28,557 nt of DNA from Deltaproteobacteria bacterium Ga0077550 (lineage in GTDB: Bacteria > Myxococcota_A > Polyangia > Nannocystales > Nannocystaceae): assembly GCA_001464385.1 (NCBI GenBank), contig LNFB01000258.1, positions 1-28,557 of the forward strand, in the 5' to 3' direction. Under the pieces are notes generated by a model, which worked only from the letters and a program-made list of their open reading frames with translations, was not told the DNA's origin and did no database searches. Of this stretch, positions 1,483 to 20,825 are shown one piece after another. The translations under genes and the position numbers were made by a program. How positions within the stretch are numbered: position 1 is the stretch's first letter; each line of letters begins with the position of its first letter.

Positions 1483-2058
1483 CTACGCGATCGCGCTGCC
1501 GCGGTAGACGTCGTCCACGACCAGGAGGCAGTCGAGGCTGTCCACCCGCACGCGCCCGCCGGCGATCGCGACGCGGGCCGCCCATTGGCCGTCGTCGAGC
1601 CGGTGATGCACGACGACGCGACGCTCCCGGTGCGAGATGATGACGTACTCGCGAAGCGACGGGATCGTCCGGTAGTACTCGAGCTTCGCTCCGGTGTCGT
1701 ACTCCTCCGAGGAGTCGCTCGTGACCTCGACGAGTACGCTCGGATTCAACGCGGTGGCGTTCGGGCTCGGTGGGTGGTGCTCGAGTGGGCCGCAGATCAC
1801 CGCGCCGTCGGGGAACGTCGCCAGGCCCGCGGCCTCGACATAGATGCGGAGATCGGAGGTGTGGGCGCGGCACGGCCGATCGCCGATCGCGTTGCCCAAC
1901 GCGCGCAGCACCTCGGCGGCGAGGGCCGAGTGCTCCTCGGATCCGCCCGCCATCGCGTAGATCTCGCCGTCGAGGAACTCGTGCTTCGTGGGGCTCTGTT
2001 GCTCGAGCGCCACGTACTCCGCGTAGGTGTAGCGATGGACGCGGCGCGCGAACGACAT
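1483..2058 (-). CDS. Uma2-family (DUF820) PD-(D/E)xK endonuclease-like protein
   Basis: This is the C-terminal 192 codons of ORF 1483..2304, starting at ATG 2058 (MSFARRVH...). Characteristic Uma2 features are present: HEFLDGEIYAMAGGSEEHSAL, VLVEVTSDSSEEYDTGAKLEYY and REYVIISHRE. The arginine-rich N-terminal extension of the long ORF is likely non-coding. Confidence 0.8.
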   Translation of the reverse strand: MSFARRVHRYTYAEYVALEQQSPTKHEFLDGEIYAMAGGSEEHSALAAEVLRALGNAIGDRPCRAHTSDLRIYVEAAGLATFPDGAVICGPLEHHPPSPNATALNPSVLVEVTSDSSEEYDTGAKLEYYRTIPSLREYVIISHRERRVVVHHRLDDGQWAARVAIAGGRVRVDSLDCLLVVDDVYRGSAIA

Positions 2059-2144
2059 GACGCCGCCGAGCGTAGCACGGGTGATCGTCGCAGGGGCGTC
2101 GGCCGCACCGGAATTGCCGGGCGCGCGGGTGTCTGTCGCGGACC

Positions 2145-3125
2145 ATGATGCCTTCGACTTGCACTCGAGCACCGGGCGGCCTTGCGACGATCCTCGTGAT
2201 CGCGGTGCTCGGCCCCGCCGCGTGCGGCGATCCGGGGGCCGGCGGCGACGCGGGCACGACGACCGACGCGAGCACCGGTGTCGCTGAGGGGAGCGCGAGC
2301 GCATCGACGACGGCGCCGACGGGGGAGGGCAGCTCGGGATCGACGGACGGCGGCGGCTCCACGGGCGGCGGCGACACGACGGCCGACACGTCGAGCAGCG
2401 GCGCGGGCGACAGCGAGTCGAGCACGGGCGACGTCGGTCCGATGGGCCTGCCCACGCTCGGCTCGTTGGTGGTGCTCGGCGACTCGATCAGCGACGGGGG
2501 CGGTGGCGCGCCGTTCTACTACACGCTGCTGCACGCCGACCTCGACGCGTTCTACGGCGACGTGCAGTACGTCAACGTCGCGCAGAGCGGCTCCGAGACC
2601 GAGGCGCTGCTCGGTCAGGTGCAGGACCTCCCCGCGGCGCTGCCCGGCCCCGTCGCGGTGGTGATCACGAGCGGCGGCAACGACATGAAGGCCAACATCG
2701 TCGCGGTCGTGACGGGCGTCGACGGCCCGGCCAAGGCCGCGCTGCAGGCCAACATCGCCGCGGCCCAGGACGCCCTGCTCGCGCCCAATCGCTTCGGCCC
2801 GGGGGTCGAGGTCCATCTCTTCGAGGGCAACATCTACGACGCGAGCGACGGCGTCGGGGACTTCGGCGCCAACGACTGCGCGTTCGGGGGCGGCTTCCCG
2901 ACGATCCCGACCGATCCGTTCTTCGAGGCGTGGAACGCCGCGATCGCCGAGACCACCGAGGCCCACGGCGGCCGTGCGGTCGACATGCACGCGTGGTTCT
3001 ACGGCCACGGCTACCACACGCCACCGAACTGGTACGCGTCCGACTGCACGCACCCGAGCACGCTCGGCCACGATCAGCTGCGGCGGCTGTTCTACACCGA
3101 GATCACCGGCGCCACGCTGCCCTGA
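2145..3125 (+). CDS. SGNH/GDSL-family hydrolase lipoprotein
   Basis: There is a signal peptide with lipobox (AVLGPAAC|G), then a Gly/Ser/Thr/Asp-rich low-complexity linker. The SGNH blocks follow: block I LVVLGDSISDGGG, block III ITSGGNDM and block V DCTHPSTLGHDQL (catalytic D-x-x-H). Confidence 0.75.
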   Translation: MMPSTCTRAPGGLATILVIAVLGPAACGDPGAGGDAGTTTDASTGVAEGSASASTTAPTGEGSSGSTDGGGSTGGGDTTADTSSSGAGDSESSTGDVGPMGLPTLGSLVVLGDSISDGGGGAPFYYTLLHADLDAFYGDVQYVNVAQSGSETEALLGQVQDLPAALPGPVAVVITSGGNDMKANIVAVVTGVDGPAKAALQANIAAAQDALLAPNRFGPGVEVHLFEGNIYDASDGVGDFGANDCAFGGGFPTIPTDPFFEAWNAAIAETTEAHGGRAVDMHAWFYGHGYHTPPNWYASDCTHPSTLGHDQLRRLFYTEITGATLP

Positions 3126-4852: not shown

Positions 4853-5023
4853 GTTGCGGGATCAGGCTACGTAGATCGCTCGACGGTCCACGTCCGCGGA
4901 TGTCCCACCCACGGCGAGCGCGACGCACAGCAGTTCGATGCATCGACCAGGATCGGCAGGAACTCGCGGGGGGTGTCGTGGAACAACGGGGTTCGCTGGC
5001 GTCACGCCGCCACCGACACCGCC

Positions 5024-6700
5024 ATGTCCACCGCACCTCGCCGTCCGCATCACCGCACCATCACCGTCGCCCACGTCGCCGTGCTCGGCACCTCGCTGCT
5101 CGCCGCGTGCGACGAGGCGAGGGACACCCGCGACGACGGGGGCGCCGGCATCTCGGGCGTCGACGACGTCGCCCCACGCACGCTCGAGGAGATGTTCGCC
5201 GAGGCCGCGGACGACTACGACGTGCCGATGCCGCTGCTGCTCGCGATCGGCCACGTCGAGACGCGGTGGCAGATGATCGCCGGGTCCGACGAGTTCGAGC
5301 ACGGCGCGCCGGCGGTCGGCGTCATGGGGCTGCGCGGCGATCGGATCGCCGAGGCGGCCGCCCTCGCCGGGCTCGATCCTGCGGAGGTGGCCGCGGATCC
5401 CCACGCCAACATCCGCGCCGCGGCGGCGTGGTTGGCCGACCGCGCCGATGCGGCCGGGATGGAGGACCGCACGGACCTCGGCGCGTGGGCGGACGTCGTC
5501 GCCGAGTGGAGCGGACTGTCGCAGGACTGGGCGCGCGCGGCCTACGTCTACGTCGAGGTCTATCCGCGCCTGCGCGAGGGCGCCGTCGAGTACGACGCCG
5601 AGGGAGAGGTCATCGCGGAGCTCGAGCCCACCGAGGCGTATCCCAACTTCACCGTGCCGCCGCCCGAGCCGGCGCTCGCCGCCGGCCCCGACTACGAGCT
5701 GTCGGTGTGGCGGCCGTCGCCCAACACCAGCTCGCGGCCGGCGGGCAACGCAGGCAAGCGCGCGATGATCATCATCCACACGTGCGAGGGCAACTACGTC
5801 GGCTGCTACAGCTGGCTGGCGAACGCGCAGTCGGGCGTCAGCGCCCACTACGTGGTCAACTCCACGGGCACCGAGATCTCGCAGCTCGTCCCCGAGTCCA
5901 AGAAGGGATGGCACATCAGCGCGAAGTACAACTGCGCGCTCAACGACGACCACGACTGCGGTCGCAACGGCGCATCGAGCAACAACTTCACGATCGGCAT
6001 CGAGCACGCCGGGTTCGGTGACCAGGCATCGTGGGACGATGGCCTCATCGATGCGTCGGCGCGGTTGGTCTGCAACATCGCGCGGGACAACGGCATCCCG
6101 ATCGACGACGTCCACATCGTCGGTCACGGCCGGCTGCAGCCGAACAACCGCACCGACCCCGGGCCGAACTGGCCGTGGGCCGAGTACCTCGACCTCGCGC
6201 GGCAGCACTGCGACGAGGCCCAGCCGGAGCCGGAGCCGGAGCCGGATCCCGATCCGCAGCCGCAGCCCGACGTGCCGGCGACGATCGTCGTCGACAACGA
6301 CAACGCCAACAACGATGCGACCTTCGCGATGGCCGCTGCCTCCAACGCGTGGACGAAGACCAGCGCCACGGCCGGCTTCAACGGCACGAACTACCTCTAC
6401 GGCAGCTTCGCCGAGGTGTCGGATCCGGTGTCGTTCTGGTTCTACGCCCCGCAGGCGGGCGTGCGTACGATCGACGCCCGGTGGACCGCGGGCACCAATC
6501 GCACCACCTCTGCGGCGTTCGTCGCCTTCGATGCCGCGGGCAACAGCCTCGGGGTGGCCTACGCCAACCAGACGACCAACGGCGGGGCGTGGCGCGAGCT
6601 CGGCAGCTTCGCCTTCACGGCGGGGTGGAACCGCGTCGCCGTGTCGCGCTGGGGCGGAGGATCGAAGGTCGTGATCGCAGACGCGATCCGGGTGCGATAG
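5024..6700 (+). CDS. multi-domain peptidoglycan hydrolase lipoprotein (lysozyme/SLT-like N-domain + N-acetylmuramoyl-L-alanine amidase (Amidase_2/PGRP) + C-terminal beta-sandwich binding domain)
   Basis: ORF 4973..6700. The lipoprotein signal peptide begins at ATG 5024 (MSTAPRRPHHRTITVAHVAVLGTSLLAAC). The N-terminal domain resembles a lytic transglycosylase: AIGHVETRW...GAPAVGVMGL...ANIRAAAAWL. The central Amidase_2 signatures are KRAMIIIHTCEGNY, SAHYVVNSTG, NNFTIGIEHAG and VGHGRLQPNNRTDPGPNWPW. An EPEPEPDPDPQPQP linker follows, then a ~140-aa Trp/Thr/Asn-rich C-terminal domain that may be golvesin-C-like (low certainty). Confidence 0.75.
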   Translation: MSTAPRRPHHRTITVAHVAVLGTSLLAACDEARDTRDDGGAGISGVDDVAPRTLEEMFAEAADDYDVPMPLLLAIGHVETRWQMIAGSDEFEHGAPAVGVMGLRGDRIAEAAALAGLDPAEVAADPHANIRAAAAWLADRADAAGMEDRTDLGAWADVVAEWSGLSQDWARAAYVYVEVYPRLREGAVEYDAEGEVIAELEPTEAYPNFTVPPPEPALAAGPDYELSVWRPSPNTSSRPAGNAGKRAMIIIHTCEGNYVGCYSWLANAQSGVSAHYVVNSTGTEISQLVPESKKGWHISAKYNCALNDDHDCGRNGASSNNFTIGIEHAGFGDQASWDDGLIDASARLVCNIARDNGIPIDDVHIVGHGRLQPNNRTDPGPNWPWAEYLDLARQHCDEAQPEPEPEPDPDPQPQPDVPATIVVDNDNANNDATFAMAAASNAWTKTSATAGFNGTNYLYGSFAEVSDPVSFWFYAPQAGVRTIDARWTAGTNRTTSAAFVAFDAAGNSLGVAYANQTTNGGAWRELGSFAFTAGWNRVAVSRWGGGSKVVIADAIRVR

Positions 6701-6767: not shown

Positions 6768-9263
6768 TCAGGGCTTGGGCGCCTTGCGCCGCTCCCACGC
6801 GCCGTGGCGCTTCTTCTCCCACGGCTTGATCTCGCGCTCGTCGAGCAACGGCAGCCCGTCTCGCGCGCGGATCTCGTTCGAGAGCTGGCCGAGGACCGCG
6901 CGGTCGCAGTGCTCGGTGTACGCGACCTCCTCGCGACCGGTGCGCGCGAGCAGCTCCTCGGCGACGTAGTAGCCGTTCTTCGCCATCTGCTCGGGCGTCG
7001 GGATCCGGTACGTGATCTTGACGAGCTCGACCTTCGCCGGGCCGACGCCGCCGTGATCGCGGGCCCACTGCCGGCACTGCCAGCGCGCGAACCACTTGCG
7101 GTACCAGTCACCACCGCCGGACTCGCCGCCGATGATGCGGCGGTTCATCTTGCGCAGCCGGTCGTTCCAGATCCACGGGATCGGCTTGCGCTCCTCGGCG
7201 TAGACATCGCTGCGCATGTCCCAGACGTGCCCGTCGTGATCCGTGACGAGCACCTTCATGAACACGTTGCTGCGCGGGGGGTTGGGCGCGAACATGCCCC
7301 AGCCCTGCTCGGTCGTGGTCCGCGTGAGCCACATCGTGAACACGCCGCGCGCCGGGCCCCGGAAGCTCTGCAGACAGTCCTTGTCGGGGAGCAGCCACGT
7401 CGCGACCGCGGTGAGGTGCCAGGCGATGCCGAAGCTCACCACGAACCGGCCGAGCGCGCCGTAGGCCCACGGTGCCGGGGTCGCGGCGATCGTGGTGTTC
7501 GCCTCGGAGGTCGCGGTGTCGCGGGCCTGACGGGCGCGGACCCACGCGACGCCGGCGAGGAACACTGCGGTGGCCACCCAGATCCAGCGGAAGTCCCACT
7601 TCGGCGCGAGCTCGACGCGCACGACGACGCCCGCGACGACGCCTGCGAGGCCGGTGTACAGCGCCCACATCGGCAGCCGCGAGGGGTTGCGCTGCAGCGA
7701 CGGCAGGCGCGGATCCTCGGCCGGCAGCACCGGCTCGCCGCGGGCGACCGACGCCGGGATGAACGGCACCTTCCACAGCGCGAGCCGGTGGCCGACGTCG
7801 CGGAGCAGGCTCGCGATCTCGCGGCCCTGGAGGAACGCGAACGTCGCCGACAACATGCCGGTCTGGAACTGACCGACGCTCATCAGCGTGAAGATGTGGG
7901 CGTGGAAGGCGAGGTGCCAGACCAGCAGCACGCGCCGACCGAAGAACCACTTGCACATCCACTCGCGATCGATGGTCACCGGCCGTGACAGCGCGCGGCC
8001 GAACACCGCGTGCAGCACGATCGGACGGTGCTCGAGCTTGCGCCACAGCAGCCACAGCGCGCCCCAGAGCCCCACCCAGAGGCCGACGAACGTGCCCGCG
8101 CCGATGGCCGGGGTGTAGTGGACCGGCCACGCGGTGTAGACCAGCGCGGCGGTGAGGCCGATGAGCGCCGCGAACGAGGCCCGCGCCAGCCAGCGGCGGG
8201 CACCGACGATGGGCGCGATCTTCTCGCGCATCGCCCACCGCGCGATGATGCCGAAGAGGATCAGCGGGAACGCGGTCTGCCCGATCTTCACCGCCCAGGT
8301 CATCGCCCGCAGCACGGTCGTGCCGGCCAGCGACGCGAGGAACTGCGGCGGCAGCCGGTAGAAGTGATCGAGGTTCATCGCGTAGTACAGCGAGTCGCCC
8401 GCGAGCCACACGCCGCCGGTCTTGAGCGTGCCGGTCGTGACGTAGATCGTCGCGAGCTGGAACATGATCAGCTTGCGCGGCCACGATGGGATGAGCCGGT
8501 AGATCGCCGCGAGGCCCTCGGGGTGCTCGGGGCTCGGGGCCACGCCCGCGCCGTTGCCCGGCCCGCCGCGATCCGACAGCAGCCCCGCGCGGCGCAGCTT
8601 CCGGCAGCGCAGCCAGTTGTCGATGCTGTACGCGTGCCCGCTCTTTGCGAACACGAGGTAGACGAGGAACGTGCGGTAGACGACCTCGGTGCCCTCCCAC
8701 GCCAGCTGGTTGCGGACGAGGATCGAGTTCATCAGGAACCAGGTCGCCGCCGCGGCCAACCGCGTGCGAAAGCCGAGGATCAGGCACAGGCCTGCGACCT
8801 CGAACGCGAACAGATGGGCCCAGAAGAACGTCGGGCTGTCCCAGAAGTAGAGCAGCGACCACTTGGGGCCGCGCAGGAACTGCCAGAGCGCCCCCGCGTC
8901 GAAGAAGCCCCAGGGCTCGTCCGCAGAGGCGCCGTCACCGAAGCCCGCGAACTGCTCGCGGGCGAAGACCTCGCGGGCCACGGCGGTCGGGAAGATGCCC
9001 TCGTCGGTGTAGAGGTACTCGAAGTACTCCCACATGCCGTTGATGTTCGCGACGACGAAGAAGCCGAACACGATGCGGAACACCGCGATGCCGCGGGGAT
9101 CCTCCTTGGTCAGCCACCATCGACGCCACAGATCGGCGTAGGAGATGAACAGCAGGGCGGCGGCGACCGCCGCCCCGAAGAGCAACCAGCCCATCGTGGG
9201 GCCGAGCGCGATCGCCTCCGTGTTGGGGACGCGGTCGGCCAATGCGAGCAGTGTCGAAGCCAT
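6768..9263 (-). CDS. HTTM-domain (vitamin K-dependent gamma-carboxylase-like) polytopic membrane protein, ~830 aa
   Basis: The N-terminal HTTM signature is IAVFRIVFGFFVVANINGMWEYFEYLY, followed by several TM segments. There are at least 8 further hydrophobic helices across the protein. The C-terminal ~180 aa soluble region is W/R-rich (NPPRSNVFMKVLVTDHDGHVWDMRSDVY...WYRKWFARWQCRQWARD). A GGGAG motif lies 5-6 nt upstream of ATG 9263. The total size is comparable to eukaryotic VKGC. Confidence 0.75.
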   Translation of the reverse strand: MASTLLALADRVPNTEAIALGPTMGWLLFGAAVAAALLFISYADLWRRWWLTKEDPRGIAVFRIVFGFFVVANINGMWEYFEYLYTDEGIFPTAVAREVFAREQFAGFGDGASADEPWGFFDAGALWQFLRGPKWSLLYFWDSPTFFWAHLFAFEVAGLCLILGFRTRLAAAATWFLMNSILVRNQLAWEGTEVVYRTFLVYLVFAKSGHAYSIDNWLRCRKLRRAGLLSDRGGPGNGAGVAPSPEHPEGLAAIYRLIPSWPRKLIMFQLATIYVTTGTLKTGGVWLAGDSLYYAMNLDHFYRLPPQFLASLAGTTVLRAMTWAVKIGQTAFPLILFGIIARWAMREKIAPIVGARRWLARASFAALIGLTAALVYTAWPVHYTPAIGAGTFVGLWVGLWGALWLLWRKLEHRPIVLHAVFGRALSRPVTIDREWMCKWFFGRRVLLVWHLAFHAHIFTLMSVGQFQTGMLSATFAFLQGREIASLLRDVGHRLALWKVPFIPASVARGEPVLPAEDPRLPSLQRNPSRLPMWALYTGLAGVVAGVVVRVELAPKWDFRWIWVATAVFLAGVAWVRARQARDTATSEANTTIAATPAPWAYGALGRFVVSFGIAWHLTAVATWLLPDKDCLQSFRGPARGVFTMWLTRTTTEQGWGMFAPNPPRSNVFMKVLVTDHDGHVWDMRSDVYAEERKPIPWIWNDRLRKMNRRIIGGESGGGDWYRKWFARWQCRQWARDHGGVGPAKVELVKITYRIPTPEQMAKNGYYVAEELLARTGREEVAYTEHCDRAVLGQLSNEIRARDGLPLLDEREIKPWEKKRHGAWERRKAPKP

Positions 9264-9279
9264 GGTCGTCTCCCGTCGA

Positions 9280-9510
9280 TCACGAGTGGCTGACGGTGGC
9301 GGGGATGCCGAGCGTCGGCGCGGGCGTGGGCGGGCTCACGACGACGGGCTTGGAGGTCACCGCGCCGGCACCATCGCTCGGCACGCCCGAGCGCTCGAAC
9401 CGGAGGATCCAGCGGTACAGCAGCACGATGAAGACCGCGCCGCCGATCCACAAACCACCCAACGTACCGAAGATTGCAACGTCGATTGCGCGAACCGCCA
9501 GCAAGACCAT
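9280..9510 (-). CDS. small (76 aa) single-pass membrane protein
   Basis: ATG 9510 is preceded by GAGGA with 8-nt spacing. One TM helix is present (VAIFGTLGGLWIGGAVFIVLLY) with a Pro-rich tail. The stop lies 16 nt upstream of the HTTM start on the same strand, so the two are probably co-transcribed. Confidence 0.45.
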   Translation of the reverse strand: MVLLAVRAIDVAIFGTLGGLWIGGAVFIVLLYRWILRFERSGVPSDGAGAVTSKPVVVSPPTPAPTLGIPATVSHS

Positions 9511-12695: not shown

Positions 12696-12926
12696 TGATG
12701 GCGACGGATCGATCGACTCGACTGGTGGCGCTCGTCCAAACGCGGCGGTGTGCCCGGCGTCTCGGTCGTGCGTGGCCGGCCAATCGGCCAACATGCCCTA
12801 CCTACGAGATGCGGCCGTACGCGACGTACGCTTGCCACTTCCCGCACCTGAGTGGTTGACAGGTCGCCGTCGGTCGCCGAGCCTGTCCCGGTCGCCGCTC
12901 GCGAGGCAGGAGGTCGGTTCTCAGGC

Positions 12927-14897
12927 ATGTCAGGTCACGTCTCATTCACCCTTCGAACGTGGTGCGTCACGTGTGTCACCGCAGCGGGAGTTGGACTGGT
13001 GTTCGGCCCCGTCGCGTGTGTACGGGACGACCATGACCCGCTCCCTGCCGGAACCGGATACGCGATGAGCGGGCCGTGCGAGACTGATGGCGAACAAGTC
13101 GTCGCCACCACCGGCGGGGACCACGGCGAAGCCTGGCACAATCCTTTCGGGCCCGATTCCCCCGATTCCTCGGGGGCGGGTGACGACGGTGACGGCCTCC
13201 CCGAGTGGTTCGACGCTGGGATCCCGGACCCGATCCCGTGGCCCTACGACTACCCGATGCCCGACCCACAGGTGCAGCCCGATCCGACTTGGTGGGAGTT
13301 CGATCCGGCGACGGCGTTCCACTACCGGTCGGCGACGACCAAGGAACTCGCGGAGAACGGGTGGCACCCAAGCACCCTGCTGGTTGTGCCGACAGACGCG
13401 GCTCGCGATGCATTGGCCCGAGGCGCGAGATCGACCGTCCTTGCGTTGCCTATTGCAGAAGACGCCGTGCGACCGCAGGTGAACCTGGCGTTTGTTGAAC
13501 TCGACCTCGAGTTGCGAGCCTCCCATGGGCCGGTCGCGTTTCCAACCCTCAACATCGACCAGAATGGACGTCGAACGCGAGTGGTACGGCGCCCGAATCT
13601 TCACTTCTATGTGACGCGAGAGTTGGACTGGAATGAGGTGGATGATATCGCGGCCAAGGCCATGGCCAGCAGCGATGGGGCGACGGAATTGACCGGCGCA
13701 ATGGGGGATCGCGTGTTCGCATTTCGCGGCCCGTTCCCGATCGATGGGTCCGTCCATCGCGTCGATATCGCGCCTCCTCGAGGCTCATCATTCTGGTTGC
13801 TCCATACAGAGTTCGGGCCGCCGTTGATGACCTCGCGTGCCCGGGTGGGTGTCGAACTCGTGCGCCAGGCCCGGGGGGCGCAGGGACACCCCGCGAACCG
13901 TGACGCTGCCGACTTAGATGTTGCAGTTGCGCCTGAAACGACCGCAAGTGCCCTCGGCTACCAGTGCGCAGACGGATTTGACAACGACGTCGACGGCAGA
14001 GCTGATTCGTGTGACTACGAGTGCGTTCCTCATCCGGAATTCGGCGGCCTCGAGCATCAGCACACCGCGCTGTCCGAGTACAGCAAGGATATCGCACTTC
14101 TCGGCGACGCTGTGTTCTGCGCGGAGAACCCATCCACAGCTCTCACGATGATGGCGACATGGGGAATGGGAGGAGCGCAGTTGCTGAGCTGGATCGAAGC
14201 GCCTGAGCCGTACGCCGGGGATGTCCGGACTCCGCCGTTTCGGCTCGCGATGCTTGGCTGCATCACGCTTGACTCCCTGAGCGACGCTCGGGCGTGTCAT
14301 AGCGACGCGGCTGAGTGTCCCGATGGGTACCCATTCACGGGTACCGCACGGAACTGGGACGCGATTGCTCTCGCCGCATGGGACGCTGTCGAAACGCATG
14401 TGACGAATCTCGATCCGGCGGACGTGCATCCGGTGAATTTTGCCGTCGTGGTGACGATGGAACAGCACACTGGGAATCTGAGCGATGGGGGACTCGGGAA
14501 TTTTCCGGATTCCGAGCACCTCGGACGCAACGGCACCGCGGTCGTCTGGTCCGGAGCGGATGATATTCTCGAACTCGAGCGTGTTGTTGCGCACGAGATC
14601 GGTCACACGCTTGGCCTTGCGCACGACACGGCCGCAGAATACGGAGTCTCAGGCATCATGAATCCTACCCACAGCCCGTGGGCGCCAGTGCTCGATTGGG
14701 ATGCTCCCTCGGCATACAAAGACACGAACAACCCAGGTACCTTTCTTGCGCAGGGCGAGGTGTGGGGCAGGTTGGTCGGGGACAAGTGGTTTCCGAGACC
14801 TCGCGGGTTCAAACTCTCGCCCTGTAGCTCGGATGCCGACTGCGAGGGTGGGTTCCCCGGCCTCGAATGCGTAGACGGTGTGGGGTGGTGCAAGTGA
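12927..14897 (+). CDS. secreted metzincin-type zinc metalloprotease (HExxHxxGxxH + Met-turn), 656 aa
   Basis: ORF 12852..14897. The start is ATG 12927 (MSGHVSFTLRTWCVTCVTAAGVGLVFGPVAC...), with GGAGGT 13 nt upstream. The C-terminal catalytic signature is VVAHEIGHTLGLAHD, followed by SGIMNP (Met-turn). Several Cys-rich segments are present, such as CADGFDNDVDGRADSCDYEC and a C-terminal CSSDADCEGGFPGLECVDGVGWC. GC content is ~60% versus ~73% in the flanks. Confidence 0.75.
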   Translation: MSGHVSFTLRTWCVTCVTAAGVGLVFGPVACVRDDHDPLPAGTGYAMSGPCETDGEQVVATTGGDHGEAWHNPFGPDSPDSSGAGDDGDGLPEWFDAGIPDPIPWPYDYPMPDPQVQPDPTWWEFDPATAFHYRSATTKELAENGWHPSTLLVVPTDAARDALARGARSTVLALPIAEDAVRPQVNLAFVELDLELRASHGPVAFPTLNIDQNGRRTRVVRRPNLHFYVTRELDWNEVDDIAAKAMASSDGATELTGAMGDRVFAFRGPFPIDGSVHRVDIAPPRGSSFWLLHTEFGPPLMTSRARVGVELVRQARGAQGHPANRDAADLDVAVAPETTASALGYQCADGFDNDVDGRADSCDYECVPHPEFGGLEHQHTALSEYSKDIALLGDAVFCAENPSTALTMMATWGMGGAQLLSWIEAPEPYAGDVRTPPFRLAMLGCITLDSLSDARACHSDAAECPDGYPFTGTARNWDAIALAAWDAVETHVTNLDPADVHPVNFAVVVTMEQHTGNLSDGGLGNFPDSEHLGRNGTAVVWSGADDILELERVVAHEIGHTLGLAHDTAAEYGVSGIMNPTHSPWAPVLDWDAPSAYKDTNNPGTFLAQGEVWGRLVGDKWFPRPRGFKLSPCSSDADCEGGFPGLECVDGVGWCK

Positions 14898-15448: not shown

Positions 15449-18643
<3,195 letters not shown>

Positions 18644-18646
18644 CGC

Positions 18647-20821
18647 ATGCGCGCACGGGTTCGAGGTCGGGTCGCGTTCGTGGTGCTCGGTGTGCGGGCG
18701 AAGGACATCCCCGGCGTCGCCGAGGAGGCGGCGGTCCGCGCCTGGCTACAGGGCGTGCGCGCCGACCTCGAGCAGGTCGGCCTGGGCGCGATCACGATCG
18801 AGTTCGAGTGGCATGGTTGGCTCGAGAGCCCGCTGCTGCAAGAAGAGCTCGCGTGCCTCGAGCTGGCGGAGTTGGCCGCCCACGCGCGGACGCTGACCGC
18901 CGAGCCGATCGCCGGGGGCCTCGTCGCGATCGTGAACTGTCGGCTCGCGCGCACCGGTGCCTCCGGAGGCGACGTCGTCGCCGATTGGATCACGCACGGT
19001 GGCCAGGGCGGCCTGCGACGCTGCCGCTACTGCGGCGCGCTGCACCTCGCGCCGAACGCCGCGCTGTCGCACTGCTGGGGGAGCCCCGAGGGTGGACACG
19101 TGTTCGACGATCGCGGCACGTTCGAGCTCGCGCGCGCGACCGAGGGCGAGATCCACTACCAGAACTGCTCGTCGTGTCACGCGATCTGGGCGTTCGACGG
19201 CAACTCGCGCGGACACTGCCCGAAGAACCCCACCGGCCACACCGGCGGCGACCGCTTCAGCCTCGCGCGCGCCGCCGACGGCGACGTGCAATGGGCCGAG
19301 TGTCGCGATTGCCAGCGCGTGATCTCGGTCGAGCTCGCCGATCGCGGCTGCCTCGAGAGCACCGAGGGCGTGCCGGTGCCGCACAACCTCGATCTCGATC
19401 GACCGCTCGCGGTGGCGCAGGAGTCGTTCCCCACCTCGAGCTGGGGCACGCGGGCGGTGGCCGCGGCGATCGGGATCCACGACGATCTCGACGCGACCGG
19501 CCGCGGGTTCCGGCCGGCCCCGCACCCGCGGTTCGCCGAGCGCGGGCCGGTGCCGCCCTTGACTGCGTCGTGGCTCGCCGGTTGGCTGCCGCCCGAGCGG
19601 GTGATCACCGTGACGTGGAAGCCGGGCCGACGCTTCGAGGCGACGATCGGCCTGGCCGACGCGGCCGCGCCCGAGCCGGTGCTGCTGCAGATCGACGCGC
19701 CCGGCGGCGTGTACACGGTCGAGGCGCGCAGCGGGCGAGGGATCGAGTCGCACCTGCCCGCGGACGAGCGGCTGCAGCTGCGACGTCTGCTCGGTCGCGG
19801 CGCCCGTGGGGTCGATGGCTGGCGCGCGTGCACGGCCTGCGGCGTCGCCGTCGACACCGCCGAGCTCGGCTGTCGCGCCGGTGGGGTGCACGCGTTCGAG
19901 AGCACCGATCTCGCGGTGCCCTTCGACAACGGCTACGTGCGCGCGGTGCCCGGGTGGCGGCGGTGCTTCCGCTGCAACGGCCTGTGGCACGCGGGCTCGG
20001 GCGAGGGCAGTGCGTGCGCCGCGGGCGGCGAGCACCGCAGCGACATGTCGACCGCCTACGCGCTGCGCACCAGCGAGACCGGCACGGGCTTCCGCGCGTG
20101 CAGTCGCTGCCGCACGCTCATCGATCCGCAGCGCGCCACGGCACCGTGCGCCGCCGGTGGCGCCCACGAGGTCCGTCGCAGCCCGTTCTTCACCCTCGAC
20201 GTCGTGCGTCGCGGCGCGAGCACGCACCAAGGGTGGTCGACGTGTCGCAAGTGCGGGATCGTCGGGTACACCCGGTCGCAGCGCTGCGCCAAGACCGGCG
20301 GGGCGCATGTGCTCGAGGATCACGATCACGCCGCCGAGCGCTGGCGCATCGTGCCCGGCATCGTCTCGACCTGGCGGTGCACCAAGTGCGCGTGCATGTT
20401 CGGCCATGCGGGGGCGTGCGCGGCGGGCGGGCGCCACACCGCCGCGGGGCTGTTCCCCGAGTTCGCGCTGCGCGAGGCGTCGGTGGTCGATCGCGTCAGC
20501 GTGCCGCAGGGCGCCGAGCCGCGCTTCCCCGGCGGGGCGCAGGCCATGCTCGCGCTGCGCCGTCACTGGCAGATCTGTCGCGAGTGCGGCGTCGTCTTCA
20601 CTCCCGGCACGGGTACCAAGTGCGCCGCCAAGTCCGGCAAGCACGTCGCGGTCGGGCCCAAGCTGGTGATGAGCAGCGCGCGGCTCGAGAGCTGGCGGGT
20701 GCTGGTCGCCGTGGGCGACGAGCTGCACGCCGATCGCGACGCCTTCAAGGTGACGCTGGTCGAGCGCGACGACGCCGAGGCCAAGCTCGTCGTCGAGTCG
20801 GTCCCGATCGCAGACGCGTGA
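18647..20821 (+). CDS. uncharacterised tandem Cys3His-repeat protein (9 x C-x2-C-x(8-14)-C-x2-GG-x-H modules), 724 aa, no signal peptide
   Basis: After a ~110-aa N-terminal region there are nine ~45-50-aa repeats. Examples are CRYCGALH...SHCWGSPEGGH, CSSCHAIW...GHCPKNPTGH, CFRCNGLWHAGSGEGSACAAGGEH, CSRCRTLIDPQRATAPCAAGGAH, CRKCGIVGYTRSQRCAKTGGAH, CTKCACMFGHAGACAAGGRH and CRECGVVFTPGTGTKCAAKSGKH. The gene is divergent from kinase 1 (starts 4 bp apart) and convergent with kinase 2 (stops 4 bp apart). The exact start is uncertain. Confidence 0.6.
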   Translation: MRARVRGRVAFVVLGVRAKDIPGVAEEAAVRAWLQGVRADLEQVGLGAITIEFEWHGWLESPLLQEELACLELAELAAHARTLTAEPIAGGLVAIVNCRLARTGASGGDVVADWITHGGQGGLRRCRYCGALHLAPNAALSHCWGSPEGGHVFDDRGTFELARATEGEIHYQNCSSCHAIWAFDGNSRGHCPKNPTGHTGGDRFSLARAADGDVQWAECRDCQRVISVELADRGCLESTEGVPVPHNLDLDRPLAVAQESFPTSSWGTRAVAAAIGIHDDLDATGRGFRPAPHPRFAERGPVPPLTASWLAGWLPPERVITVTWKPGRRFEATIGLADAAAPEPVLLQIDAPGGVYTVEARSGRGIESHLPADERLQLRRLLGRGARGVDGWRACTACGVAVDTAELGCRAGGVHAFESTDLAVPFDNGYVRAVPGWRRCFRCNGLWHAGSGEGSACAAGGEHRSDMSTAYALRTSETGTGFRACSRCRTLIDPQRATAPCAAGGAHEVRRSPFFTLDVVRRGASTHQGWSTCRKCGIVGYTRSQRCAKTGGAHVLEDHDHAAERWRIVPGIVSTWRCTKCACMFGHAGACAAGGRHTAAGLFPEFALREASVVDRVSVPQGAEPRFPGGAQAMLALRRHWQICRECGVVFTPGTGTKCAAKSGKHVAVGPKLVMSSARLESWRVLVAVGDELHADRDAFKVTLVERDDAEAKLVVESVPIADA

Positions 20822-20825
20822 CGCG

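Follow-up and report, generated by a model that had tools for sequence, protein, structure and literature searches.

Between two Ser/Thr kinase genes in contig LNFB01000258.1 of the Nannocystaceae bacterium Ga0077550 (28,557 nucleotides, the whole stretch analysed and referred to here as the window) lies an open reading frame (ORF) for a Cys-rich protein of 724 amino acids. The locus raises two questions. What kind of protein does this gene encode, and does the protein work with the kinases on either side of it? A preliminary description regarded it as a free-standing repeat protein. We find instead that it is homologous along its length to peptidase paralogues of the metzincin/M6 type and, as judged from its sequence, is a catalytically dead member of that uncharacterised family, one with nine Cys3His modules arranged in threes.

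The gene and its orthologues

The ORF at 18647..20821 comprises 724 codons and a TGA stop codon. Long ORFs arise in many frames of high-GC genomes, and the GC content of the window is 71.6%; a spurious reading frame would be one explanation of the sequence, and a secreted, disulfide-rich protein another. We give neither any practical weight. The GC content at the three codon positions (GC1/2/3 = 0.72/0.58/0.91) is the coding pattern of a real gene. There are ten full-length orthologues with 50–100% identity, all from metagenomes or metagenome-assembled genomes (MAGs) assigned to Nannocystales/Nannocystaceae; none of them bears a name or a Pfam domain. Comparison with four orthologous genes gives a ratio of nonsynonymous to synonymous substitution rates (dN/dS) of 0.12–0.49, so that purifying selection acts on the gene. 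These values, down to a dN/dS of 0.12, and the homology to a large family refute an artefact. The conservation in relatives that the preliminary description had called for is thus present.

A search of the 724-residue sequence for a signal peptide or hydrophobic segment found none, which speaks against secretion, and three Cys residues per module is an odd number that is ill suited to disulfide pairing. The N-terminus, MRAR(V/F)RGRVAF, is conserved, aligns with the N-termini of the paralogues and would form strand 1 of the fold. We therefore consider the protein to be cytoplasmic, in agreement with the earlier assignment.

Searches of Pfam, NCBIfam, PADLOC and PDB sequences with the 724-residue query gave no significant match. 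A second word-indexed search for homologues, with alignment A2 as the query, returned the same ten orthologues and nothing further, and a third, with alignment A3, returned solely short repeat proteins annotated as 'hypothetical'.

Nine Cys3His modules

The protein contains 30 Cys residues, of which 27 fall within nine units of the form C-x2-C-x(9-13)-C-x(5-10)-H. The C-x2-C pairs start at Cys126, 174, 219, 395, 440, 485, 533, 578 and 644. About nine modules in one tandem array had been proposed. The count is correct but the single array is not: the modules form a block of three (residues 119–250) and a block of six (residues 388–672), with a non-repeat region of 137 residues between them, and non-repeat domains of 118 and 52 residues flank the blocks on the N-terminal and C-terminal sides. 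The module periods are 48 and 45 residues in the first block and 45, 45, 48, 45 and 66 residues in the second.

The Cys3His character of the units was likewise recognised earlier, but in a form, C-x2-G-G-x-H, that is too strict, being found in four of the nine modules (4, 5, 6 and 8). The spacing from the third Cys to the His ranges from five to ten residues; x5 occurs in four of the nine and in about 80% of the modules of the wider family. The 'F-x-L-A-R' segment noted ahead of the modules is present, but it belongs to the preceding module, as its third strand (Y/F-x-L), and is not a lead-in to the next.

A single-module hidden Markov model (HMM), built solely from proteins of other organisms with the query excluded, finds nine domains in this ORF (full E 4e-39) and has no match in any other frame of the window. 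The per-domain i-E is 0.01 or lower for eight of the nine modules and the third is nominal (i-E 1.5, 2.4 bits). All 36 putative Cys and His ligand positions are invariant in the ten orthologues (50–69% identity), compared with 27% of all alignment columns (hypergeometric P = 2e-22). Given this invariance, the dN/dS values and the independent HMM, the nine-module feature is real and far beyond chance.

The constraint on the ligands supports the simplest reading of the Cys3His pattern, namely nine structural metal sites of zinc-ribbon type, as the preliminary description had supposed. The chain would probably bind nine metal ions, distributed over three predicted domains of three modules each, with zinc the most likely metal. 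In an AlphaFold2 model of three modules (described below) each CxxC sits between two strands, at a predicted β-hairpin turn. The best sequence matches in a PDB profile search, none significant, are to zinc ribbons: the Cys3His ribbon of ribosomal protein bL36 (E 0.2) and that of AccD. Zinc-ribbon models in Pfam and other family libraries gave no significant match to the modules. The bL36 ribbon (C-x2-C-x12-C-x4-H) has the same ligand set as our modules with nearly the same spacing, but it belongs to a single-copy RNA-binding protein, whereas the modules here occur in packed sets of three.

Two other cytoplasmic or tandem Cys/His systems deserve comparison. CDGSH proteins of the mitoNEET type also have three Cys and one His in a unit of about 40 residues, sometimes in tandem in bacteria; their motif, C-x-C-x2-(S/T)-x3-P-x-C-D-G-(S/A/T)-H, does not fit the query, which has no Pfam match to this domain at E <= 1. 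The ZAS (zf-HC2) anti-sigma domains of RsrA and ChrR are likewise cytoplasmic Cys/His zinc sites in signalling, and one of the neighbouring kinases has such a domain. The query modules differ from them in motif and are predicted to be β-rich instead of helical.

Three modules probably form one domain

The modules obey a rule of three. Among 192 family proteins, 217 of 267 HMM-defined module runs (81%) are 3, 6, 9 or 12 long (binomial p = 3e-58), and the query, with runs of 3 and 6, fits. Modules three apart are more alike than those at lags of one, two or four (Wilcoxon p = 8e-7). A ten-residue loop between CxxC and the third Cys is found at position 1 of the triplet in 86 of 275 cases and at positions 2 and 3 in two and eight of 275; modules 4 and 7 of the query carry this loop. 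Our working definition of the family is the module W-x2-C-x2-C-x(9-14)-C-x(5-6)-H-...-[YF]-x-L in runs whose length is a multiple of three, and the query qualifies.

AlphaFold2 was run on residues 388–531 (modules 4–6) with a 76-row alignment of three-module windows. The model has a mean predicted local distance difference score (pLDDT) of 88.2 and a predicted template-modelling score (pTM) of 0.81, and from this confidence we infer that three zinc-ribbon-like sites build one compact domain of about 140 residues, rather than beads on a string. A modelled module consists of a strand leading to the first Cys, the CxxC turn, a second strand, the C-x5-H loop and the third, 'Y/F-x-L', strand. A comparison of the modelled triplet with the PDB yielded no analogue.

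The β-trefoil of ricin-B lectins and FGF is likewise a portable recognition domain of about 140 residues that is built from three sub-repeats of about 45 residues and found on enzymes and toxins. Many modules of the present family follow a Q-x-x-W motif. The triplet domain was tested for the β-trefoil fold itself (three β-β-β-loop-β units), with a negative outcome.

Conservation is highest in triplet 1, with 42% of columns invariant; in triplet 2 the share is 38%. In triplet 1 a further set of residues is invariant: GGQGG 118–122, His133, His142, His170, His190 and HTGGDR 198–203 (encoded within 18998..19255). They are specific to this clade and absent from the intact paralogues, and could make up a further site, for a metal or for some other function.

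A probable dead metzincin/M6-like peptidase

The regions outside the modules identify the protein. Alignment A2 shows that P0011, P0012, P0014–P0019 and others are collinear with the query along its whole length. The common order begins with an N-terminal α/β subdomain, three Cys3His modules, an HExxHxxGxxH helix and a 'GAYGDxxDIMS' segment and continues with a β-rich 'GWLPxxRV' domain and a further six to nine modules before ending in a small C-terminal β domain. Profile comparisons with hhalign, restricted to the non-repeat parts, relate the N-terminal subdomain to 18 HExxH-bearing paralogues with a probability of 96.9% (E 1.6e-10) and the mid domain to HExxH-bearing paralogues with 96.1% (E 3.4e-9). 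An hmmsearch match to P0014 has E 3e-9 at library-size Z. The N- and C-terminal domains taken alone gave no HMMER match at library-scale Z, the link of the N-domain being a profile–profile result alone. The C-terminal domain has four strands in the AlphaFold2 model (pLDDT 75–87), and a search with its own HMM gave nothing significant.

What kind of enzyme are the intact paralogues? HExxHxxGxxH is found in 34 of the 149 top clusters. In 17 paralogues the core has as invariant residues H-E-x-x-H-x-x-G-x-x-H, Y, D, D and M, with the sequence D-I-M-S. Against PDB profiles this core matches serralysin and the matrix metalloproteinases (E ~1e-3); NCBIfam M6 model TIGR03296 is matched with E 3e-7 to 2e-5 (25–31 bits, below the cut-off of 110.8), and there are weak matches to Pfam M11 and Reprolysin_4. 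The query itself has no match to Pfam or NCBIfam peptidase models. When the low-confidence full-length AlphaFold2 model was submitted to Foldseek, InhA2 (M6, PDB entry 4yu5), ADAMs and fragilysin ranked first, none significantly (E >= 0.035).

In the query the residues required for this chemistry are gone. The paralogue motif H-E-x-x-H-x-x-G-x-x-H corresponds to R269-A270-x-x-A273-x-x-G276-x-x-D279, and a deletion of about 22 residues after the degenerate helix removes the 'GAYGDxxDIMS' Met-turn segment, leaving D280-L-D-A-T. HExxH is absent from the query and from the nine other orthologues of alignment A1. The N-terminal subdomain and mid domain are thus homologous to those of paralogues with an invariant zinc motif and a Met-turn-like segment, whereas neither the query nor any of its orthologues has the two zinc-binding His residues, the catalytic Glu or the Met-turn segment; in the query a 130-residue triplet domain stands as an insertion before the active-site helix. 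It is because the scaffold has been kept while the zinc motif and the Met-turn segment have been lost that we regard the protein as a pseudo-peptidase. The features are listed in Table 1.

Table 1. Features of the 724-residue protein and its flanking kinase genes, in positions of the window
Feature	Positions	Strand	Residues	Remarks
Complete coding sequence of the Cys3His-module pseudo-peptidase	18647..20821	+	1-724	ATG 18647; TGA 20819-20821
N-terminal alpha/beta subdomain	18647..19000	+	1-118	Homologous to the N-subdomain of the metzincin/M6-like peptidase paralogues
Predicted triplet domain 1 (modules 1-3)	19001..19396	+	119-250	Just before the vestigial active-site helix; putative ligands C126/C129/C143/H151, C174/C177/C191/H198, C219/C222/C235/H246
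Remnant of the peptidase C-subdomain and beta-rich 'GWLPxxRV' domain	19397..19807	+	251-387	
Degenerate active-site helix	19430..19489	+	262-281	TSSWGTRAVAAAIGIHDDL; alignment A2 and hhalign
Predicted triplet domain 2 (modules 4-6)	19808..20239	+	388-531	Putative ligands C395/C398/C409/H415, C440/C443/C457/H463, C485/C488/C501/H507
Predicted triplet domain 3 (modules 7-9)	20240..20662	+	532-672	21-residue insertion between modules 8 and 9; putative ligands C533/C536/C547/H554, C578/C581/C591/H597, C644/C647/C659/H666
Small C-terminal beta domain	20663..20818	+	673-724	Same position as in the paralogues (alignment A2)
Divergent, probably receptor-type Ser/Thr kinase	15449..18643	-		Pfam, motifs, hydrophobic segment; true start probably GTG near 18547
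Probable shared divergent promoter region, about 99 nt	18548..18646	.		Applies if the kinase starts at Val33; orthologue gene calls and tblastn start points
Convergent Ser/Thr kinase with TPR, about 1025 aa	20826..23903	-		Pfam, motifs; orthologue in L002 has 1025 aa

Loss of the ancestral site does not by itself mean loss of all activity. The extra residues of triplet 1 (H133, H142, H170 and H190, GGQGG and HTGGDR) might make up a new catalytic or metal site: this triplet is the most conserved, it is located where the ancestral fold would have its substrate cleft and the paralogues do not have the extra His residues. Yet the Pfam, NCBIfam and PDB searches show no similarity to any catalytic family, and His residues beside Cys ligands may merely tune the structural metal sites or add to them. 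We regard a surviving enzyme as very unlikely.

A large family of triplet domains

The preliminary description saw the modules as lying outside the described families. This is borne out, since no Pfam, NCBIfam, PADLOC or PDB family was found that covers the module, and a literature search on the 'CPAGG' motif and on zinc ribbons in tandem or as repeats turned up no relevant paper. The family is undescribed rather than rare, being large and taxonomically broad. When 1.84 billion representative proteins were scanned in full by HMMER, the whole-protein orthologue profile matched one full-length cluster and gave 302 partial matches at E <= 1e-10. At E <= 1e-3 the partial matches number at least 1365 clusters (50% identity), and those listed all match the module-bearing part. 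The hosts include Myxococcota, Streptomyces, Bacillus, Paraburkholderia, Isosphaera, Bacteroidota, Planctomycetota and Chitinivibrionales, and the members are named 'hypothetical protein' or have stray automatic zinc-finger names.

The company that the modules keep is informative. Peptidase_M23 is fused to them in 13 of the 62 family proteins that have large non-repeat regions, and single Pfam fusions among the same 62 include Hemopexin, Tyrosinase, Pro-kumamolisin, Endotoxin_N (delta-endotoxin), Laminin_G_3, LGFP, Peptidase_C70, CARDB and others. On a Spirosoma plasmid a triplet is fused to a matrixin (WP_231780091.1). On the simplest reading, the triplet is a portable domain for recognition or binding that is added to hydrolases and toxins. 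About 90% of family members have no signal peptide and several of the rest carry a twin-arginine motif; such signals suit a domain that takes up a cofactor, plausibly a metal, as it folds in the cytoplasm. The short repeat-only proteins of Isosphaera and Streptomyces have no recurring neighbour in the contexts inspected.

A cell-wall-binding domain of phage lysins was also considered for the triplet and was dropped, as relatives of the protein were absent from 50,697 phage records.

In four family members, P0013, P0020, P0061 and P0090, the repeats come first. They are 1350–1410 residues long, with 9–12 modules and a C-terminal region of about 800–900 residues that has no Pfam match. In P0013 and P0020 this region is rich in Ala, Leu and Gly and reminiscent of large toxins, and the A-B-C-A-B-C pattern of the modules is obvious.

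The flanking kinases

Both flanking genes encode Ser/Thr kinases with TPR repeats, as previously described. The HRD, DFG and APE motifs are intact in each, and a hydrophobic segment follows the kinase domain and precedes the TPRs. They are probably receptor-type enzymes with a cytoplasmic kinase domain. Since the TPR parts lie beyond the transmembrane (TM) segment, they are probably not the docking site for a cytoplasmic protein. The divergent kinase has, in order, a ZAS/zf-HC2 motif (C36...H61-x3-C65-x2-C68), the kinase domain (residues 119–383), a TM segment (404–425) and the C-terminal TPRs, and its ZAS motif is conserved in all six orthologues examined. In PADLOC the Cys3His protein has no match and the kinases match generic kinase models alone.

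The stop codons of the Cys3His gene and the convergent kinase gene are separated by 4 nt (20822–20825), the distance reported earlier. The longest ORF of the convergent kinase, 20826..25031, would encode 1401 residues; its first 376 or so codons are Arg/Ser-rich, overlap better-supported genes in other frames or on the other strand and are probably not translated, with the real start near 23903. On the divergent side the start codons had been placed 4 bp apart. The gap is 3 nt with the longest kinase ORF, and this holds for that ORF alone. The gene calls for the orthologues in L001 and L002, as well as the alignments, begin at Val33 of 'VDACPDP'. The start would then be near 18547, the longest ORF being 32 codons too long, and the divergent genes would be about 99 nt apart.

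We compared the gene order in seven distinct lineages. Both kinases adjoin the Cys3His gene in four of them: the window with L005 (94% identity), L002 = L004 (68%), L011/L012 (54%) and L013 (52%). In L014 (51%) and L001 (51%) the divergent kinase is adjacent and the convergent kinase is not, and in L003 = L016 (69%) neither is. The conserved kinase pairing that had been anticipated is therefore clear for the divergent gene, whose orthologue is directly adjoining in head-to-head orientation in six of the seven lineages, down to 51% identity, and weaker for the convergent gene (four of seven). Otherwise the downstream neighbours vary; among them are small ORFs, PSD-family genes and copies of a gene for a Cys-rich lipoprotein.

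Possible function

Our favoured reading, which we think has a somewhat better than even chance of being right as a whole, is a cytoplasmic, non-catalytic, multi-zinc binding protein that derives from a peptidase and acts in the pathway of the head-to-head ZAS kinase. Its two parts do not have equal standing. The structural identity is highly probable, while the partnership with the kinase, which is suggested by gene order, is tentative. We propose that an uncharacterised metzincin/M6-like zinc peptidase was the ancestor, whose domain order was kept as HExxHxxGxxH and the Met-turn segment were lost. Three copies of the triplet domain would have been retained under the strongest conservation, with nine structural metal sites likely to contain zinc. 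The protein would function by binding and not by catalysis, the triplet domains, especially 1 and 2, holding a partner or ligand. As the head-to-head arrangement with the gene for a membrane Ser/Thr kinase has been kept, and this kinase has a ZAS finger and a kinase domain in the cytoplasm, the protein may act in its pathway as adaptor, substrate or regulator.

Several points weigh against this reading. The extra invariant His residues of triplet 1 could mean a new active site, not pure binding, and the full-length AlphaFold2 model has a pLDDT of 49 overall and 61–88 in the N-terminal subdomain. Myxobacteria encode very many Ser/Thr kinases, and the region around the Cys3His gene is locally rich in them. 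The divergent kinase is missing from one lineage (L003/L016). The synteny was observed within one family (Nannocystaceae/Nannocystales MAGs), and shared descent could explain it; a 312-residue lipoprotein gene and a gene resembling that of the major vault protein (MVP) are syntenic too. There are no kinase fusions among the 182 family proteins retrieved, which leaves gene order as the ground for the substrate, scaffold or sensor role suggested earlier. Two loci of intact paralogues, L009 and L010, found in a metagenome scan with a five-sequence alignment of the peptidase core, have no kinase nearby, a sample too small to judge linkage. These last two observations make the kinase link appear specific to the pseudo-peptidase clade.

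Several of the same observations would follow if there were no functional tie to the kinase at all. The synteny would then be inherited, and the protein might be a decoy or regulator of intact paralogues or a binder of whatever ligand the triplet recognises. Pseudoenzymes often regulate active paralogues, and the intact paralogues here, those with HExxHxxGxxH, are numerous; moreover, several unrelated genes are syntenic too, one lineage manages without the divergent kinase and kinases are absent both from the fusions and from L009 and L010. Conserved head-to-head gene pairs are, on the other hand, good predictors of functional linkage, and the divergent kinase has stayed in place in six of the seven lineages while the downstream neighbours were replaced. 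We rate the absence of a tie as unlikely, though it is the strongest of the alternatives.

Another alternative is a redox or metal sensor. The Cys3His sites would in that case be labile or redox-active, as thiol-oxidisable zinc in the manner of the ZAS anti-sigma factors or as mononuclear Fe or Fe–S in the manner of CDGSH, and oxidants or metal limitation would shift the conformation of the protein and signal to the ZAS kinase and to the nearby ECF sigma factor. The 27 invariant Cys residues in a cytoplasmic protein, the conserved C...HxxxCxxC motif of the partner kinase, the ECF sigma gene at 24601–25278 and the four extra invariant His residues beside ligand Cys in triplet 1 would all suit such a sensor. 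The ligand sets are nevertheless invariant and regularly spaced, like those of structural zinc ribbons; the spacing is unlike CDGSH, with no Pfam match to zf-CDGSH or rubredoxin at E <= 1, and the modules occur in hundreds of fusions to hydrolases and toxins, for which a structural role is the simpler reading. A sensor of this kind seems to us quite improbable, less so than a new enzyme.

Returning to the non-catalytic binding protein, a bolder version can be put forward. The triple Cys3His unit would be a new tri-metal fold and a widespread targeting domain of peptidases and toxins, and its dead-peptidase carrier in Nannocystaceae would be a dedicated cytoplasmic partner of the ZAS kinase, as substrate, adaptor or metal/redox input. 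This is speculative, and we would put it behind the kinase partnership stated more generally. Zinc-ribbon-like modules, metzincin scaffolds, pseudoenzymes and gene pairs linked to kinases are all familiar as kinds. New are the obligate three-module domain, for which we found no solved analogue or family model, and the pairing of a dead peptidase with a kinase, which is undescribed in the sources searched.

Other genes in the window

The ECF sigma factor gene (24601..25278, minus strand; Sigma70_r2/r4 and Sigma70_ECF matches) is near the gene for the ZAS-domain kinase, and a kinase with an anti-sigma domain and a nearby sigma factor may form a combined kinase/sigma-factor switch. Just upstream of the sigma gene, 25293..26231 (minus strand) encodes a predicted lipoprotein of 312 residues (signal ...LLIGC), the mature part of which is acidic and very rich in Cys. 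Neither Pfam nor the PDB gave a match to it. Its homologues are near the Cys3His gene in most lineages, and L014 has three tandem copies.

The MVP-like gene, 26412..28557 (plus strand), runs off the end of the window. It is homologous to an 836-residue protein that, in L001 and L002, contains a major-vault-protein shoulder domain (PF11978). Near nt 27548 the match shifts from frame 3 to frame 2, which points to a frameshift, a fault in the assembly or a pseudogene. Synteny of the gene extends to L001, L002/L004 and L005; it has no match in L003, where the locus ends about 3.4 kb downstream of the Cys3His gene.

An ORF of 681 residues at 12852..14897 (plus strand) has a weak match to metzincin zinc sites (DUF4953 Met-zincin, Peptidase_M10 and Reprolysin). 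Cys3His modules are absent from it, and it bears no relation to the Cys3His gene. Further away are a multidomain cell-wall hydrolase (4853..6700, plus strand; SLT, Amidase_2 and Golvesin_C), an 855-residue protein with weak HTTM and SLATT_1 matches (6768..9335, minus strand) and a putative endonuclease of the Uma2 family (1483..2487, minus strand).

Significance

The module family is large and follows a clear rule, modules in threes, and we found for it no Pfam or NCBIfam model, solved structure or paper. The fusion partners (M23, matrixin, S53, C70, the pore domain of Cry toxins and tyrosinase) suggest a targeting role, in which the domain brings hydrolases and toxins to a ligand; the identity of the ligand would provide an annotation for hundreds of effector-like proteins now called 'hypothetical'. 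If the kinase partnership is correct, a pseudoenzyme is linked to the eukaryote-like kinase signalling of bacteria. Myxobacterial genomes encode hundreds of Ser/Thr kinases whose choice of partners is poorly understood, and the pair of pseudo-peptidase and ZAS kinase would provide a genetically defined case in which to study it.

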